A stretch of DNA of 64,000 nucleotides from Escherichia coli (GCF_046105845.1 NZ_CP151004.1), one strand, 5' to 3'. Shown: positions 21,720 to 28,158, numbered from the stretch's first letter. The notes: generated by a model from the letters alone, not told the origin. Program-made: numbers and translations.

Positions 21720-21859
21720 CGGGAAAGCCCCTCCCGAGGAAGGGGCCATAAATAAGGAAAGGGTCATGATGAAGCTACTCATCATCGTGGTGCTCTTAGT
21801 CATTAGCTGGCCAGCTTACTAAGACTACCAGGGCGGGGGAAACCCCGCTCTACCCTCAC
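21720..21859 (-). ncRNA. Sib-family antisense sRNA (antitoxin) copy 1, approximate boundaries
   Basis: Minus-strand promoter: -35 TTGACA (rc of 21888-21893), 17-bp spacer, -10 TACTTT (rc of 21865-21870). Minus-strand terminator hairpin (rc of 21727-21746) plus U-rich tract. Fully overlaps the ibs ORF in antisense. Confidence 0.6.
21766..21822 (+). CDS. Ibs-family type I toxin peptide, copy 1 (MMKLLIIVVLLVISWPAY)
   Basis: 18-codon ORF with strong SD (aaggaaaggg) 6 nt upstream; hydrophobic single-TM peptide characteristic of Ibs toxins. The ibsA/ibsB/extra-copy assignment is uncertain. Confidence 0.8.
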   Translation: MMKLLIIVVLLVISWPAY

Positions 21860-22047
21860 TCCTGAAAGTATGCCTTCACGATAAGATTGTCAATCTGCAG
21901 GCTTTGCAGTCTGCGATCCTGCCAGCAAATATTCTTTGCGAGACGTTACGCAATAATCACACTGGAAACTATTTTATCCGCAAGTCAGCGATAGACTGCA
22001 TTCAGGGCGAAAGGAGGTAAGCCGACGATTTCAGCGGGACGCTGAAA

Positions 22048-22187
22048 CGGGAAAGCCCCTCCCGAGGAAGGGGCCTTAAATAAGGAAAGGGTCATGATGA
22101 AGATACTCATCATCGTGGTGCTCTTAGTGATTAGCTACCCAGCATACTAAGACTACCAGGGCGGGGGAAACCCCGCTCTACCCTCAC
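22048..22187 (-). ncRNA. Sib-family antisense sRNA (antitoxin) copy 2, approximate boundaries
   Basis: Same promoter (TTGACA-17-TAATTT) and terminator architecture as copy 1, shifted by one repeat unit. Confidence 0.55.
22094..22150 (+). CDS. Ibs-family type I toxin peptide, copy 2 (MMKILIIVVLLVISYPAY)
   Basis: Same architecture as copy 1 in the second repeat unit. Confidence 0.8.
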   Translation: MMKILIIVVLLVISYPAY

Positions 22188-22376
22188 TCCTGAAATTATG
22201 CCTTCACGATAAGATTGTCAATCCGCAGGCTTTGCAGTCTGCGATCCTGCCAGCAAATATTCTTTGCGAGTCGTTACGCAATAATCACAGAGGAAACTAT
22301 TTTATTCACGCGTTAGCGATAGACTGCATTCAGGGCGAAAGGAGGTAAGCCGACGATTTCAGCGGGACGCTGAAAC

Positions 22377-22520
22377 GGGAAACCCTCTCCCGGAGAAGAG
22401 GGCTTTTAATAAGGAAAGGGTTATGATGAAGCACGTCATCATACTGGTGATACTCTTAGTGATTAGCTTCCAGGCTTACTAAGAACACCAGGGGGAGGGG
22501 GAAACCTCTCCCTAACCCTC
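22377..22520 (-). ncRNA. Sib-family antisense sRNA (antitoxin) copy 3, approximate boundaries
   Basis: Minus-strand TTGACA (rc of 22551-22556), 17-bp spacer, TAATTT; terminator-like hairpin near 22385-22405. Confidence 0.55.
22423..22482 (+). CDS. Ibs-family type I toxin peptide, copy 3 (MMKHVIILVILLVISFQAY)
   Basis: 19-codon ORF in the third repeat unit with SD aaggaaaggg. Confidence 0.8.
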   Translation: MMKHVIILVILLVISFQAY

Positions 22521-22702
22521 ACTCCTGAAATTATGTCACTCCGCCCTTAGTGTCAATCGACGGCTCTCCGTTCTTGCGAGGCGAATAGCAAAATTTTCTG
22601 CGCCGCCGGGCCTAATTCTGAAAGTTTCTTCGTTTGCTCTTATTTCATTATTGCAATCGGTATGATACCGGACCTCGATAATTCTCTAAGAAAGGATTTC
22701 TT

Positions 22703-23362
22703 ATGAGCGAACAAATCACGTTTGCCACCAGCGATTTTGCCAGTAACCCGGAACCACGTTGCCCCTGCATTTTGCTGTTGGATGTTTCTGGTTCGATGAG
22801 TGGTAGACCTATTAATGAACTTAACGCCGGATTGGTTACCTTTCGCGATGAACTGCTTGCCGATTCGCTGGCCTTAAAAAGAGTGGAACTCGGCATTGTG
22901 ACGTTCGGCCCGGTGCATGTGGAACAACCCTTTACCAGCGCCGCTAATTTTTTCCCGCCCATCCTGTTTGCCCAGGGCGATACACCAATGGGCGCTGCCA
23001 TTACCAAAGCCCTGGATATGGTTGAGGAGCGCAAACGTGAGTATCGTGCAAATGGTATTTCCTATTATCGCCCGTGGATTTTCCTGATCACCGATGGCGC
23101 TCCAACCGATGAGTGGCAGGCTGCCGCCAACAAAGTGTTTCAGGGGGAAGAAGATAAGAAGTTTGCCTTCTTTACCATTGGTGTACAGGGGGCGGATATG
23201 AAGACGCTGGCACAAATCAGCGTTCGTCAGCCTTTGCCACTGCAGGGATTACAATTCCGTGAACTGTTTAGCTGGTTATCCAGTTCGCTGCGTTCGGTTT
23301 CCCGCTCCACGCCGGGAACGGAAGTTGTGCTGGAAGCGCCAAAAGGCTGGACGTCAGTGTGA
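22703..23362 (+). CDS. yegL: von Willebrand factor A (vWA) domain protein with MIDAS motif
   Basis: 219-aa ORF; MIDAS DxSxS motif visible ([11 protein letters not shown]); stop overlaps the yegK start. Confidence 0.88.
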
Positions 23363-24120
23363 GCTGGCGTCTGGTCTATGCATCAGCTGTTGGAACGTCG
23401 CACATCAGCGCGGACTTGCCTTGCCAGGATGCCTGCCAGATGCAGGTTGCCTGGCTAAATGACCAGCAGCCATTATTGACGGTATTTGTCGCTGATGGCG
23501 CAGGCAGTGTCTCGCAGGGTGGCGAAGGCGCGATGCTCGCCGTCAATGAAGCGATGGCTTATATGTCGCAAAAAGTGCAGGGTGGGGAATTGGGGCTTAA
23601 TGATGTCCTCGCCACGGATATTGTGCTGACTATTCGTCAGCGACTTTTTGCCGAGGCAGAGGCCAAAGAATTAGCGGTTCGCGATTTTGCCTGCACATTT
23701 CTGGGACTGATTTCATCGCCTGACGGCACCTTGATTATGCAGATTGGCGATGGCGGCATGGTGGTAGATTTGGGTCACGGTCTGCAATTGCCTCTCACGC
23801 CGATGGTGGGTGAATATGCCAATATGACGCACTTCATTACCGACGAAGATGCCGTTTCCAGACTGGAAACTTTCACCAGCACTGGGCGTGCGCACAAAGT
23901 TGCAGCATTTACGGATGGTATCCAGCGACTGGCGTTAAATATGCTGGATAATTCTCCTTATGTGCCTTTCTTTACCCCGTTTTTCAATGGACTGGCGTCA
24001 GCAACGCAGGAACAATTCGATTTATTACCTGAATTGTTAAAGCAGTTTTTGTCCAGCCCGGCGGTAAACGAGCGTACGGATGATGATAAAACGTTGGCAC
24101 TGGCGCTGTGGGCAGAGTGA
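23359..24120 (+). CDS. yegK: PP2C-like Ser/Thr protein phosphatase
   Basis: 253-aa ORF with PP2C-like Asp/Gly-rich motifs ([17 protein letters not shown]); translationally coupled to yegL. Confidence 0.85.
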
Positions 24121-24129
24121 GTTTCTCAT

Positions 24130-24157
24130 GGCGGTTGAAGACAACAATTCAACCGCC
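24130..24157. terminator. Perfect 10-bp stem-loop (ggcggttgaa/ttcaaccgcc) between convergent yegK and yegJ; probable bidirectional terminator
   Basis: Seen in sequence; 8-nt loop, T/A-rich flanks. Confidence 0.5.
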
Positions 24158-24184
24158 AGTTTAAACAATAAATATAACGGCTGA

Positions 24185-24646
24185 TTAGCGAACTAATTTT
24201 GCTCTTAGCTCGTCGGCTTCTTCTTTTGGATAGGTGACCAATAAAGGATCAATGGTATAACCGCCGTAAATTTTATCCCCGCGTGTATACATCCAGTCTG
24301 AAATATCTTCTTTCTTGATTTTCCACTCCTGGCCATATTCTACGTTTGTAACAATACCAGGGTCATTGCTAATTACGCCAATAAACATGCCGTTAGAATA
24401 AGTGACATCCGTAAGCCAGAAATGCTCGGTTCTTCCGTGATCGGTTATCGGGGCTTTGACTGCGAAAGTATCGGCATCTTTTTTATTCATAACCTCGATG
24501 AATTTATCGGTTTCTTTCCGCGCATGTTGAATGGCGTCAGACATCGCTTGTTTATCATAACCTCCCGTCACTAACGTATCCGAAACTTCACTAAAGCCCG
24601 CGGTAGTAAAAAATAGCAGACTCAACATAAGTAATATCTTTTTCAT
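24185..24646 (-). CDS. yegJ: Secreted/periplasmic protein of unknown function (DUF2314-like)
   Basis: 153-aa ORF with N-terminal signal peptide (MKKILLMLSLLFFTTAGFS); position between yegK and yegI. Confidence 0.8.
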   Translation of the reverse strand: MKKILLMLSLLFFTTAGFSEVSDTLVTGGYDKQAMSDAIQHARKETDKFIEVMNKKDADTFAVKAPITDHGRTEHFWLTDVTYSNGMFIGVISNDPGIVTNVEYGQEWKIKKEDISDWMYTRGDKIYGGYTIDPLLVTYPKEEADELRAKLVR

Positions 24647-24846
24647 CTTTTCTCCAGAATCCCTGTGTAGTAAAAGTTAGCAAAAAACCTGTGGAAGTGA
24701 ATCATTATCAGGTTGGAATTGAATTGTATCCTGATGAAATTGCATTATCATTTTTATTCTTGAGTGGGACTCTTCCAATATGGAAATAATTATAATGGGC
24801 AGTGTTATTATTCATTAAAATATAATATGACTGCCCTTGAAACATT

Positions 24847-26793
24847 ATGAAGACAAATATAAAAGTATTTACATCGACAAGTGAATTGACCACTCTCGGC
24901 CGTGAACTGGGCAAAGGTGGCGAAGGCGCGGTTTATGATATCGAGGAGTTTGTCGATAGCGTCGCTAAGATTTATCACACGCCGCCACCCGCCTTAAAAC
25001 AGGACAAACTTGCCTTTATGGCTGCGACAGCTGACGCGCAGTTGTTGAATTATGTCGCCTGGCCGCAGGCAACGCTTCACGGTGGACGAGGCGGAAAGGT
25101 TATCGGTTTTATGATGCCAAAAGTTTCTGGTAAAGAACCGATTCATATGATCTATAGCCCGGCACATCGTCGCCAGAGTTACCCTCATTGTGCGTGGGAT
25201 TTTCTACTCTATGTTGCGCGCAATATTGCTTCATCTTTTGCTACGATTCACGAGCACGGGCACGTCGTGGGTGACGTAAACCAGAACAGCTTTATGGTGG
25301 GCCGTGACAGCAAAGTGGTGTTGATTGATAGCGACTCCTTTCAGATTAACGCCAATGGCACGCTGCATTTATGCGAAGTCGGCGTGTCGCATTTTACGCC
25401 GCCAGAGCTGCAAACCTTGCCATCATTTGTCGGCTTTGAACGCACCGCGAATCACGATAATTTTGGCCTTGCGTTGCTGATTTTTCACGTCTTGTTTGGT
25501 GGGCGGCATCCTTATTCCGGTGTACCGCTTATCTCTGATGCGGGTAATGCACTGGAGACGGATATTGCCCATTTCCGTTATGCCTACGCGTCAGATAATC
25601 AGCGACGTGGTTTAAAACCGCCGCCACGATCTATTCCGCTGTCGATGTTACCGGGTGATGTTGAAGCCATGTTTCAGCAGGCATTCACGGAAAGTGGCGT
25701 GGCAACCGGGCGTCCGACGGCAAAAGCGTGGGTAGCGGCACTTGATTTACTACGCCAACAGTTAAAGAAATGTACCGTTTCGGCAATGCATGTTTACCCC
25801 GGTCATTTGACTGACTGCCCGTGGTGTGCGCTGGATAATCAAGGCGTTATCTATTTTATTGATCTCGGCGAAGAGGTCATTACCACCGGCGGTGATTTTG
25901 TGCTGGCGAAAGTCTGGGCAATGGTGATGGCGTCAGTAGCACCACCAGCATTGCAACTGCCATTACCCGATCATTTCCAGGCTGCTGGCAGGCCGCTTCC
26001 TTTAGGCCTGTTACGGCGTGAATACATCATTCTGATTGAGATCGCACTGTCAGCGTTATCGCTGTTGCTTTGCGGCCTTCAGACAGAACCGCGTTATATT
26101 ATTTTGGTTCCTGTGCTGGCGGCTATCTGGATTATTGGCAGCCTGACAAGCAAAGCGTACAAAGCAGAAATCCAGCAACGCCGTGAGGCGTTTAATCGTG
26201 CGAAAATGGACTATGACCATTTAGTCCGCCAGATCCAACAGTTGGGCGGGCTGGAAGGTTTTATCGCCAAACGGACGATGCTCGAAAAAATGAAGGACGA
26301 CATTCTTGGGTTACCGGAAGAAGAAAAGCGCGATCTGGCAGCATTTCAGGACACCGCAAGGGAACGGCAGAAGCAGAAGTTTCTGGAGGGATTTTTTATT
26401 GATGTTGCCTCTATTCCCGGCGTTGGCCCTGCGCGTAAAGCGGCGTTACGGTCCTTTGGTATTGAAACAGCGGCAGACGTTACCCGACGGAGCGTTAAGC
26501 AAGTTAAAGGTTTTGGTGATCATCTGACCCAGGCGGTTATCGACTGGAAAGCGAGTTGCGAACGCCGTTTTGTTTTCAGGCCGAACGAAGCGGTAACGCC
26601 TGCAGACAGACAAGCGGTAATGGCAAAAATGGCCGCCAAACGACATCGGCTGGAATCGGCGCTGACTGTCGGTGCGACAGAGTTGCAGCGATTCCGCCTT
26701 CATGCTCCAGCACGGACCATGCCGTTGATGGAACCGTTACGTCAGGCGGCAGAAAAACTGGCTCAGGCGCAGGCTGATTTAAGCCGTTGCTGA
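24847..26793 (+). CDS. yegI: Eukaryotic-like Ser/Thr protein kinase-fold membrane protein with C-terminal helix-hairpin-helix-like motif
   Basis: 648-aa ORF: N-terminal Gly-rich loop (LGKGGEGAVY), VAKIYH lysine, atypical catalytic loop (HVVGDVNQNS) and DSDSF in place of DFG; two hydrophobic helices (~res 390-430); C-terminal IPGVGPARKAALRSFGIETAADV resembles an HhH motif. Confidence 0.85.
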   Translation: MKTNIKVFTSTSELTTLGRELGKGGEGAVYDIEEFVDSVAKIYHTPPPALKQDKLAFMAATADAQLLNYVAWPQATLHGGRGGKVIGFMMPKVSGKEPIHMIYSPAHRRQSYPHCAWDFLLYVARNIASSFATIHEHGHVVGDVNQNSFMVGRDSKVVLIDSDSFQINANGTLHLCEVGVSHFTPPELQTLPSFVGFERTANHDNFGLALLIFHVLFGGRHPYSGVPLISDAGNALETDIAHFRYAYASDNQRRGLKPPPRSIPLSMLPGDVEAMFQQAFTESGVATGRPTAKAWVAALDLLRQQLKKCTVSAMHVYPGHLTDCPWCALDNQGVIYFIDLGEEVITTGGDFVLAKVWAMVMASVAPPALQLPLPDHFQAAGRPLPLGLLRREYIILIEIALSALSLLLCGLQTEPRYIILVPVLAAIWIIGSLTSKAYKAEIQQRREAFNRAKMDYDHLVRQIQQLGGLEGFIAKRTMLEKMKDDILGLPEEEKRDLAAFQDTARERQKQKFLEGFFIDVASIPGVGPARKAALRSFGIETAADVTRRSVKQVKGFGDHLTQAVIDWKASCERRFVFRPNEAVTPADRQAVMAKMAAKRHRLESALTVGATELQRFRLHAPARTMPLMEPLRQAAEKLAQAQADLSRC

Positions 26794-26805
26794 GCCAGTT
26801 TTCAA

Positions 26806-28158
26806 TTAACGAAACACGACTTCTGCCCAGCGTGCCAGCCCGGCGGTGACGGAGCCAAAGTCATCGCCACCTGCAATCGGAATGCCCGGCAACTGTTCTG
26901 TCAGCGCTTTTTTAATCAGCGGTGAACGGGCGCTACCGCCGGTCAGATAGATAACATCCGGTTTTTCCTGGGCGTTATCCAGCGCCAGTTGCACCTGTTC
27001 CAGAATCCGCGCCAGTGGCTGGTTGAGGGCGCTTTCCAGCCCTTGCTGGCTAATCAGCGTAGCCAGTTCATCGCTGATAAACGGCAGTGAGGCGCGGGTT
27101 TCCGCTACGCTTGAAAGCGCAATTTTGCTCTCTTCTGCGCTACGTACCAGGCGATAGCTTAAACGCTGACGCCAGACTTTCTGTAACAGGGCCACTTTTT
27201 CCGGTTCGCGGGCATCGCGTACCAGATCGTTAAGCAGACGACCGTTGGCACTACTGTAGAAATCACTTTGCGCAGGTACGTCGTTGATGGCAACCGCATT
27301 CCACCACGGCAGAATCGGCAGGGCGATGCCTTTTTCGGTTTCGCCACCCATGCCCAGTAACGGCATCAGGTTTTTAAACGCCAGTGCGATATCCAGATCG
27401 TTACCGCCAATACGGCAACCACTGTGACCCAGCAGGCTGGCTTCACGATCGAGACGCGAACGCCACTGCGGCCCCATCAGCAGCAATGAACAGTCAGTCG
27501 TACCACCGCCGATATCCACCACCAGCACCCGTTTTTCTTCCTGCAAGGTGGCTTCGTAATCCAGCCCAGCCGCGACCGGCTCGTACTGGAATACCACATC
27601 CTTAAACCCGGCACGCTTTGCCGCGCGTTCCAGAATCCCTTGCGCCTGGGTGTTTGCTTCATCGCCGCCCAGCCCCTGGAAGTTGATCGGGCGACCAATC
27701 ACCGCCTGAGTAATCGCATCCGGCAGCTGCGCCTGCGCCTGCTGGCGAATGTGCAACATCATTGCGCAGACCAGATCCTCAAACAGCGCTACCTGCTGCG
27801 GTTTTAAGCCGCTGGCACCGAGGAATGATTTTGGTGATTTCACAAACCACACCTCTTCTGGATCATCAATGTACTGTGCCAGTGAGGAAAGACCGAACTG
27901 CACGCTTTTCGCCGTAACATCGATATCTTCTTCGCGGTTATAACGAATCGCCCGACGCAAAAGCGCCTGCGTTTCATCGTCGTCTGCCGGAACATCATGA
28001 TGGCGGTACAGCCATTCGCTTACCGCTTCACGCGTTGGCGCGCAAAGCATTGAAGGCAGCAGCGTGCTGTCGTTTTCCATTTTTAGCAAATGCGGTTTAC
28101 CGTCGCGCATGACCGCCACTGAACAGTTTGCTGTACCGTAATCAAAACCAATAAACAC
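26806..28158 (-). CDS. yegD: Hsp70/actin-fold ATPase family protein YegD
   Basis: ORF track extends to 28221, but homology begins at the GTG at 28158 (V/MFIGFDYGTANCSVAV, DnaK-like phosphate-1 motif), giving 450 aa. Confidence 0.85.
   Translation of the reverse strand: MFIGFDYGTANCSVAVMRDGKPHLLKMENDSTLLPSMLCAPTREAVSEWLYRHHDVPADDDETQALLRRAIRYNREEDIDVTAKSVQFGLSSLAQYIDDPEEVWFVKSPKSFLGASGLKPQQVALFEDLVCAMMLHIRQQAQAQLPDAITQAVIGRPINFQGLGGDEANTQAQGILERAAKRAGFKDVVFQYEPVAAGLDYEATLQEEKRVLVVDIGGGTTDCSLLLMGPQWRSRLDREASLLGHSGCRIGGNDLDIALAFKNLMPLLGMGGETEKGIALPILPWWNAVAINDVPAQSDFYSSANGRLLNDLVRDAREPEKVALLQKVWRQRLSYRLVRSAEESKIALSSVAETRASLPFISDELATLISQQGLESALNQPLARILEQVQLALDNAQEKPDVIYLTGGSARSPLIKKALTEQLPGIPIAGGDDFGSVTAGLARWAEVVFR

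Follow-up and report, generated by a model that had tools for sequence, protein, structure and literature searches.

Triads made up of a von Willebrand factor A (vWA) protein similar to TerY, a PP2C phosphatase, and a serine/threonine kinase were defined as the TerY-P class by Anantharaman, Iyer & Aravind (2012), who proposed them as a metal-sensing phospho-switch tied to DNA-processing and restriction systems. T7-like phages are fended off in Escherichia coli by a TerY-P system whose kinase has an oligonucleotide/oligosaccharide-binding (OB) fold (Gao et al. 2020), and the TerY-P kinases associated with CoCoNuT systems end in a C-terminal zinc ribbon. A P. aeruginosa variant, which protects against Autographiviridae without killing the cell, was found by hand after detection tools had missed it (Costa et al.), and TerY proteins also sit in tellurite and stress-resistance clusters. 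Here, we analyzed yegL–pphC–yegI, a locus at positions 22703–26793 of a 64,000-nt stretch of E. coli DNA (GCF_046105845.1, NZ_CP151004.1; hereafter the window, always at its full length). We find it to be a self-contained, horizontally mobile triad of the TerY-P type, now fixed in the chromosome of Escherichia, and its most likely role, to which we give a probability of roughly 45%, would be that of an invader- or stress-sensing defense switch related to the antiphage TerY-P systems. The genes, their enzymology, and the class of the system were already known; what is added here is the three-gene synteny, an invariant Cys/His motif and a double helix-hairpin-helix, (HhH)2, fold in YegI, the defense neighborhoods of homologous loci, the replacement that brought in yegJ, and the purifying selection on the triad, all of which sharpen a testable hypothesis and leave the classification unchanged.

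The locus consists of four open reading frames (ORFs), which lie exactly where an earlier note, made from the sequence alone, had placed them, and whose products are named in RefSeq "vWA domain-containing protein," "protein-serine/threonine phosphatase PphC," "YegJ family protein," and "protein kinase YegI." These are not chance ORFs, given their length, ratios of nonsynonymous to synonymous substitution rates (dN/dS) of 0.06–0.19 against the O157 alleles, and thousands of homologs. The three genes of the triad and the parts of their products on which the argument bears are as follows, with positions counted in the window:

22703–23362, plus strand: yegL, 219 amino acids, TerY-type vWA protein
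22781–22795, plus strand: DxSxS of the YegL metal ion-dependent adhesion site (MIDAS), residues 27–31; T94 and D131 complete the site
23359–24120, plus strand: yegK (pphC), 253 amino acids, GTG start, PP2C-like serine/threonine phosphatase
24847–26793, plus strand: yegI, 648 amino acids, protein kinase
24847–25746, plus strand: YegI kinase domain, residues 1–300, with P-loop GKGGEG, K41, HVVGD143VN145QNS, and D161-S-D163-S164-F replacing DFG
25759–25836, plus strand: YegI zinc-knuckle- or zinc-ribbon-like motif, C309-x5-H315-x8-C324-P-W-C327
26017–26157, plus strand: YegI membrane hairpin, hydrophobic helices at residues 391–413 and 415–437, joined by a loop of about 1–5 residues
26395–26571, plus strand: YegI (HhH)2 domain, residues 517–575, hairpins G525-V-G527 and G555-F-G557
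26599–26787, plus strand: YegI C-terminal long helix, residues 585–647, ending in a conserved LAQAxADL motif

The likeness to the TerY-P class lies in the three-gene combination of a vWA protein with MIDAS, a PP2C phosphatase, and a kinase with a C-terminal module of the nucleic-acid-binding type, often found among defense genes, and also in the Cys/His motif of YegI, which follows directly after the kinase domain, where the CoCoNuT-linked TerY-P kinases have their zinc ribbon. However, a membrane hairpin, a coiled coil, and an (HhH)2 domain come on top in YegI, whereas the kinase of the Gao system has an OB fold and the CoCoNuT-linked kinases a zinc ribbon alone, and the cassette is core in E. 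coli, not accessory.

The evidence that these genes belong together begins at the yegL–yegK junction, where the TGA stop of the former and the GTG start of the latter share 4 nt (GTGTGA), an overlap found again in many homologous loci and in agreement with the translational coupling proposed in the earlier note. yegI does lie downstream of yegK, as was also claimed there, but not directly, since a gap of 726 nt that holds yegJ on the opposite strand separates the two; the vWA, PP2C, and serine/threonine kinase genes form one codirectional cassette, which yegJ interrupts in the window copy and which is uninterrupted by yegJ in 64% of E. coli genomes. A synteny scan with one genome per species returned 80 loci, the triad being found in Proteobacteria, Firmicutes, Actinobacteria, Acidobacteria, Cyanobacteria, Planctomycetes, and archaea (Methanoregula/Methanomicrobiales). 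Of the non-redundant loci, 75 had 1.5 kb or more of upstream sequence; in 73 of these, the order yegL–yegK–yegI was contiguous and codirectional, the other two being frameshifted remnants of the same order, which bears out the view that the three genes are conserved as a unit. When 957 flanking ORFs from 82 loci were clustered, no fourth conserved gene emerged, with no other neighboring family present in more than 11 of the 82. TetR, response regulators, histidine kinases, ABC ATPases, Pgi, and HrpA were discarded as a fourth part for being lineage-specific or generic, and yegD and yegJ were rejected because both are confined to Escherichia. Broken copies exist as well: in Escherichia sp. MOD1-EC7003 (L006, 8671–10620), yegI is split into two ORFs, in a metagenome-assembled genome (MAG) of Nitrosomonas (L020), yegL and yegI are split, and in a Methylophosphatis MAG (L024), the genes are scattered and fragmented.

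The family of YegI is very large, with 9,640 representatives at 50% identity for E ≤ 0.001 and at least 3,193 for E ≤ 1e-30, and the architecture of about 645 residues holds down to about 35% identity. As to mobility, homologs occur on 43 plasmid or megaplasmid records from outside Escherichia, including pQBR103, and the one in Chromobacterium has Tn7-like transposition genes no more than about 9 kb away, a few kb downstream; a search of 50,697 phage records returned one weak partial match, and the cassette is not phage-encoded. In E. coli, the 4.4-kb region is single-copy, chromosomal, and at a fixed site in 5,417 of 5,426 complete genomes, and at least 80% of it is present at 90–99% DNA identity in 5,390 of them, a count made at the DNA level. 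Between the window and O157, dN/dS is 0.06 for yegL, 0.19 for yegK, and 0.10 for yegI, against 0.07 for the neighboring yegD, over a dS of 0.13–0.24, which shows that all three triad genes are under continuing purifying selection. The nearest relatives outside Escherichia (Klebsiella spallanzanii, K. aerogenes, and Betaproteobacteria) are only about 60% identical and stand in unrelated contexts, which agrees with an ancient horizontal gain that later became fixed in Escherichia. The best match to positions 22500–26900 of the window among the 5,426 RefSeq E. coli genomes is 98.1% identical, typical strains reaching 95–96%, so that the lineage of the window is not closely represented in this set.

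The first member of the triad, YegL, was read in the earlier note as a vWA protein with MIDAS, and this reading stands: the protein matches Pfam VWA (E = 6.9e-10), and its MIDAS, of the kind expected in a TerY-type vWA protein, is complete, with D27, S29, S31, T94, and D131 each at least 95% conserved in 73 homologs. Over 181 residues, YegL is 31% identical to TerY1 of an IncHI2 ter cluster (E = 2e-25), and a tblastn search matched thousands of ter plasmids. The serines of the YegL tail motif FSWLSSSL...S (residues 189–202) are likewise at least 95% conserved in the 73 homologs; that this serine-rich tail might be a phospho-acceptor is only a speculation, because the alignment has a C-terminal F-x-W-[LV]-S-x-S motif in common between YegL and classical TerY1, which may be structural. 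On the IncHI2 plasmid pMCR1-51133 (NZ_OP950835.1, L089, 8995–12969), ISApl1-mcr-1 lies about 120 bp downstream of a 302-amino-acid hypothetical ORF that follows the TerY-C gene. The second member, YegK, was rightly described as PP2C-like: it matches Pfam PP2C_2 (PF13672; E = 6.1e-52, residues 11–231) and has the fold and the conserved metal-binding aspartates of the PP2C (PPM) phosphatases, the metal-site residues being D46-G47, D131-G132, D186-G187, and D242-D243, of which D46, D131, D186, D242, and D243 reach at least 95% conservation. The phosphatase activity of PphC has been published: the enzyme is an atypical, Mn-dependent PP2C that lacks 2 of 8 canonical residues and dephosphorylates YegI (Rajagopalan & Dworkin 2018, 2020), taking off the phosphates on serines of the YegI activation loop.

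The third member, YegI, is a divergent but active Hanks-type kinase. It has the bilobal fold, the Gly-rich loop, the Lys, the Asp, the metal-binding Asp, and an APE-like Glu of this superfamily, and it departs from it in lacking the canonical HRDxKxxN and DFG; Pfam gives no Pkinase match to YegI itself at E up to 10, HHH_5 being the only family matched, and it is on account of HVVGDVNQNS, DSD, and this missing Pkinase match that we call it divergent. The strings HVVGDVNQNS, DSDSF, and IPGVGPARKAALRSFGIETAADV, quoted in the earlier note, are all present in the translation, and the kinase fold suspected there is well supported. Indeed, Pfam Pkinase matches 38 of 50 diverse full-length YegI relatives, and an AlphaFold2 model of YegI, built on a 50-sequence family alignment, has a predicted local distance difference test score (pLDDT) of 93.8 and a predicted template modeling (TM) score of 0.81; its first 300 or so residues retrieve PknB, CaMKII, BRAF, Aurora, and other kinases in Foldseek at target-normalized TM scores of 0.65–0.73. 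An NCBIfam scan returned sub-threshold matches only (LanL/LanKC kinase domains, the HhH region of DinB, and Stp1). Invariant across 50 diverse homologs are G24, E26, K41, D143, N145, D161, D163, S164, Q166, P186, and E187, which include the segment D161-x-D163-S164-F-Q166 and the PPE motif with P186 and E187.

These residues can be set beside published enzymology, in which YegI is numbered over 646 amino acids. YegI is an active kinase whose activity depends on Mn2+ or Mg2+, with a preference for Mn2+; K39, D141, and the DSD motif are essential, the K39D and D141N mutants being dead, and autophosphorylation, with second-order kinetics, falls on S153, S160, S162, and two C-terminal serines (Rajagopalan & Dworkin), the latter at S602 and S644 in the same numbering. 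The essential S162 is the family-invariant S164 of YegI as numbered here. The same authors neither detected expression nor found substrates, and neither the HhH domain nor a function of YegL nor TerY-P is taken up in their papers. The earlier note had singled out the locus as under-characterized biology, which is true of the physiological role, indeed poorly defined, but not of most of the rest, since the kinase activity, the VGDxxQxS loop, the DSD motif, the topology, the action of PphC on YegI, and the yegJ insert had all been published.

Beyond the kinase domain, YegI carries further modules. C309, H315, C324, and C327, together with W326, are invariant in the 50 diverse homologs and form in the model a beta-hairpin followed by a helix; this motif, which we did not see described for YegI in the literature examined, may bind metal. 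The two membrane helices predicted in the earlier note correspond to the hydrophobic stretches (Kyte–Doolittle) at residues 391–413 and 415–437, modeled as helices 391–411 and 417–467, and the published PhoA-LacZalpha topology has YegI cross the inner membrane twice, its two ends being cytoplasmic (Rajagopalan & Dworkin). After the hairpin come a coiled-coil stalk, a domain with two G-hydrophobic-G hairpins, and a 63-residue helix. The two hairpins are packed as a five-helix domain, and the assignment to (HhH)2, foreshadowed by the HhH-like motif of the earlier note, is right at the level of the fold: YegI matches Pfam HHH_5 (E = 7.6e-4, residues 517–553), the family profile matches the HhH regions of L32e, DinB, REV1, UvrC, and RAD51 among PDB sequences (E = 0.006–0.1), the domain modeled alone reaches a pLDDT of 91, and Foldseek returns the same fold class at non-significant E-values. 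JGI and NCBI both name YegI homologs, the NCBI name being "helix-hairpin-helix domain-containing protein." In E. coli, the domain is basic (isoelectric point 10.2, net charge +5), and it could be a nucleic-acid-binding module. The helix at 585–647 is a single one in the model (pLDDT above 90) and is probably a dimerization coiled coil. On Sphingobium and Sphingomonas plasmids (H65 and H67), YegI-like kinases about 33% identical over residues 17–575 are annotated with a topoisomerase-type C4 zinc-finger DNA-binding C-terminus instead of HhH, which suggests that within the family one nucleic-acid-binding module can stand in for another at the C-terminus.

Outside the TerY-P class, the kinase–phosphatase pairs PknB/PstP and PrkC/PrpC resemble YegI and PphC in the bilobal fold (target-normalized TM of about 0.7 to PknB), in autophosphorylation of the activation loop, in a PP2C encoded in the operon, and in a membrane anchor. 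Unlike them, YegI is without an extracytoplasmic sensor such as PASTA, has VGDxNQ for HRDxKxxN and DSD for DFG, and goes with an obligatory vWA partner, its sensor-like domain being cytoplasmic and of the DNA-binding type. Phage defense by a serine/threonine kinase is represented in E. coli by PD-T4-6, which is the best PADLOC match of the YegI kinase (E = 1.3e-4, residues 20–240), and the staphylococcal Stk2 is another such defense kinase, reportedly described by Depardieu and colleagues in 2016. However, the similarity to PD-T4-6 and Stk2 is weak, and both are single-gene systems without vWA, PP2C, membrane hairpin, or HhH. The likeness of YegI to DisA is one of design logic only, as DisA is a soluble octameric diadenylate cyclase and not a kinase, has nothing to anchor it in the membrane, and lacks partners of the vWA or PP2C type.

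From the perspective of genomic context, several homologous triads are found next to defense genes. The tightest adjacency seen is that of P. alcaligenes (L025, 4224–8185), where the upstream side of the vWA gene is taken up by a complete Gabija system (GajA 715 bits, GajB 736 bits) that stops 57 bp short of it. Elsewhere, the triad neighbors Avs2 in Rhodoferax (2,926 bits), a type II methyltransferase in Chromatium, PD-Lambda-2_C in Bacillus, and a type I restriction enzyme and a WYL regulator at two further loci; it stands amid an SLFN-like helicase, a McrA-like protein, a nuclease, BrxR, and JetB in Piscinibacter, AbiH and a KAP NTPase in Chromobacterium, and GmrSD with a type I restriction-modification system in Klebsiella spallanzanii. 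On one metagenomic contig, type I restriction-modification genes and Mrr directly adjoin the triad. The type I restriction-modification, Mrr, GmrSD, AbiH, KAP NTPase, BrxR, and JetB assignments come from Pfam. In the neighborhood check for co-occurrence with defense that the earlier note had advised, defense genes turned up in about 10 of 22 sampled contexts; among relatives that share at least 50% identity with E. coli YegI, the figure is 7 of 10. The tally is suggestive only, since the sampling was uneven and had no random-locus control.

A defense switch is the reading that we favor on the strength of class membership, mobility, and neighborhoods, and also of silence in culture and of harm on overproduction. 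Indeed, laboratory cultures leave the locus silent and the long-term evolution experiment has repeatedly yielded mutations in yegI, overproduction of YegL or YegI raises endogenous DNA damage, both being scored as DNA-damage-promoting proteins, and overexpression of YegI slows growth. In such a switch, the cytoplasmic stalk would hold the basic (HhH)2 domain near the inner face of the membrane, where it might bind phage, incoming, or damaged DNA; nucleic-acid binding would gather kinase domains and so lead to trans-autophosphorylation of YegI, which, once active, would phosphorylate YegL and/or other targets. The MIDAS metal site of YegL may bind a phosphorylated or acidic ligand, YegL being either substrate or adaptor, perhaps through its serine-rich tail, and the outcome would be that phage growth is blocked or the cell arrested, with PphC holding the switch off and resetting it. 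The more specific proposal that YegI is a membrane-tethered nucleic-acid sensor kinase, which would confer on the whole species an immunity of the TerY-P class against T7-like phages or mobile DNA, is tentative and, in our judgment, somewhat unlikely; it would have the (HhH)2 domain, kept at the inner membrane face by the transmembrane hairpin and the coiled coil, detect entering DNA or a DNA lesion and turn on a circuit of the kinase, YegL, and PphC, and the core genome of E. coli would then contain a hitherto unrecognized defense that present defense finders overlook.

Several observations weigh against a role in defense. Defense systems are usually accessory, whereas 5,417 of 5,426 E. coli genomes have this cassette as a core element, in one copy and always at one site, where its flanks are housekeeping genes except for Ibs/Sib toxin–antitoxin modules; and the remaining half or so of the sampled contexts of homologous triads show no defense genes among those tested for. 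No phage or stress phenotype of yegLKI is reported in the searchable literature, and YegL is no more than a putative substrate of YegI. With regard to the (HhH)2 domain, its net charge ranges from −6 to +10 across the family, and similar folds in the C-terminal domain of the RNA polymerase alpha subunit, the N-terminal domain of Rad51, and SAM-like domains can bind protein rather than DNA. Finally, PADLOC assigns none of the four proteins to TerY-P, its models matching YegL at E = 0.013 only and YegK and YegI not at all at E up to 10, although this is weak evidence against membership because the PADLOC TerY model also misses the classical TerY1–3 of the IncHI2 tellurite cluster (plasmid pMCR1-51133), being a narrow model that defines only the experimentally tested subfamily.

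The alternative that survives best is that the triad is an endogenous module of stress or physiology signaling, not an antiphage one, which would respond to metal or tellurite through the MIDAS of YegL, to DNA damage through HhH, to the state of the membrane through the hairpin, or to stationary phase, and would tune host proteins by reversible serine/threonine phosphorylation. We consider it possible, if somewhat unlikely. A core, syntenic position in E. coli and purifying selection like that on yegD are what such a module would display, about half of the homologous loci lie amid housekeeping genes, and the weak expression of yegI that has been published is confined to stationary phase; DNA damage on overproduction and the neighboring alkA fit a link with DNA metabolism, TerY itself is at home in tellurite and stress clusters, and the first proposal for TerY-P was a metal-sensing phospho-switch. 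Yet a patchy, plasmid-borne spread across domains of life, with frequent defense neighbors, is unusual for a housekeeping regulator, the TerY-P systems tested by experiment are antiphage, and no substrate or phenotype is known that would support this module.

It is improbable, in comparison, that the triad persists in E. coli without any cellular function today, either as a domesticated remnant that has been silenced or as a selfish module of the addiction type, with a potentially toxic kinase kept in check by its phosphatase. This would account for the published failure to detect transcription under any tested condition, for the harm done by overproduction together with the recurrent yegI mutations in the long-term evolution experiment, for the splitting of the operon by yegJ in 36% of genomes, and for the pseudogenized copies L020 and L024 and the split yegI of L006. 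However, a decaying remnant would not be expected to combine a dN/dS of 0.06–0.19 over a dS of 0.13–0.24 in all three genes with the retention of at least 80% of the locus at 90–99% identity in 5,390 of 5,426 genomes, nor with a yegJ replacement that kept both reading frames and a family-like YegI N-terminus.

If the triad is a defense switch, E. coli carries a near-universal, chromosomally fixed immune module that PADLOC does not flag, and offers a tractable model for the mechanism of TerY-P systems, which shield E. coli and P. aeruginosa from T7-like phages; the kinase family concerned is very large (at least 3,193 clusters at 50% identity, E ≤ 1e-30), and YegL, PphC, and YegI would gain the physiological role that the groups characterizing both enzymes could not find. 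If it is not, what remains is a well-annotated orphan pair of signaling enzymes, mainly of interest to specialists of bacterial serine/threonine phosphorylation.

The gene that parts yegI from yegLK in the window belongs to a segment with its own history, whose features are:

24112–24897, no strand assigned: yegJ-bearing replacement segment, lineage-specific, which parts yegI from yegLK
24129–24158, no strand assigned: perfect inverted repeat of 11 bp, arms TGGCGGTTGAA and TTCAACCGCCA, flanked by the converging stops of yegK and yegJ
24185–24646, minus strand: yegJ, 153 amino acids, DUF2314 protein with a signal-peptide-like N-terminus

Relative to the yegJ-less allele of O157, a low-GC (0.39–0.43) segment of about 785 bp stands for about 55 bp of the ancestral junction, and the alignment with O157 has it altering the two C-terminal residues of PphC as well as residues 1–17 of YegI, while both reading frames were kept and YegI received a family-like N-terminus. 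A simple insertion of yegJ is rejected, as the segment replaces about 55 bp and rewrites both gene ends; the new N-terminus of YegI, MKTNIKVFTSTSELTTLG, fits the family consensus xFTSxGxxxxLG, which hints that the segment may have come by recombination from a diverged triad and not by de novo insertion. The segment is present in 1,932 of 5,426 complete E. coli genomes (36%), among them non-K-12 strains such as an avian pathogenic strain and a derivative of E. coli W, a wider spread than the literature states, two papers having yegJ confined to K strains (one of them, by Rajagopalan & Dworkin, to K-12 and not B or O157). In 82 non-redundant homologous loci, yegJ was not found beside any other triad, and it is a later, lineage-specific arrival and no part of the conserved triad. 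The earlier description of an embedded gene for a secreted protein is right about the embedding, does not say that yegJ stands outside the conserved module, and owes the word "secreted" solely to a signal-peptide-like segment.

YegJ matches Pfam DUF2314 (E = 2.9e-25), and its N-terminus consists of MKK followed by hydrophobic residues 4–22, a Sec-like arrangement that would make the mature protein periplasmic and so keep it apart from both RNase E and the cytoplasmic kinase. A 2026 study reports that YegJ binds the N-terminal domain of RNase E, that its overproduction is toxic and makes the membrane leaky, and that overexpression of yegJ induces yegD, from which a role in the same pathway was speculated; N-terminally tagged YegJ was not detected in that study, which the signal-peptide-like N-terminus would explain. 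The same N-terminus is hard to square with an interaction with RNase E in the cytoplasm, as reported. That yegJ might be a functional fourth component, through which the triad would connect with RNase E or the envelope, is suggested by its position between pphC and yegI and by these 2026 findings, but is very unlikely for a gene that 64% of complete E. coli genomes lack, that is found neither in other Escherichia clades (L006) nor at any further triad locus examined, that lies on the opposite strand at low GC in a replacement segment, and whose mature product a Sec-like N-terminus would make periplasmic. As to transcription, the 11-bp inverted repeat is a possible bidirectional terminator, which a consensus terminator scan did not call, the repeat having no T-run; the replacement also puts a 200-bp AT-rich spacer before yegI, and with a hairpin after yegK and this spacer in front of it, yegI must be expressed separately from yegLK in yegJ strains. 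Promoter and terminator scans gave counts no better than those of shuffled sequence.

The locus is flanked by mdtB and mdtA upstream and by yegD, alkA, and dgcE downstream. Directly upstream of yegL, at 21751–22556 of the window, three type I toxin–antitoxin modules stand in tandem, each made of a short plus-strand Ibs toxin ORF (MMKLLIIVVLLVISWPAY, MMKILIIVVLLVISYPAY, and MMKHVIILVILLVISFQAY) facing a SIB antitoxin RNA (Rfam RF00113, 140–150 bits). O157 likewise has three annotated Ibs genes upstream of yegL, and K-12 has two at this site. At the other end, the convergent stops of yegI and yegD, on opposite strands, are 12 nt apart (26793–26806), and the pair is listed as an "excludon" of overlapping transcripts in a 2025 RNA-seq survey.

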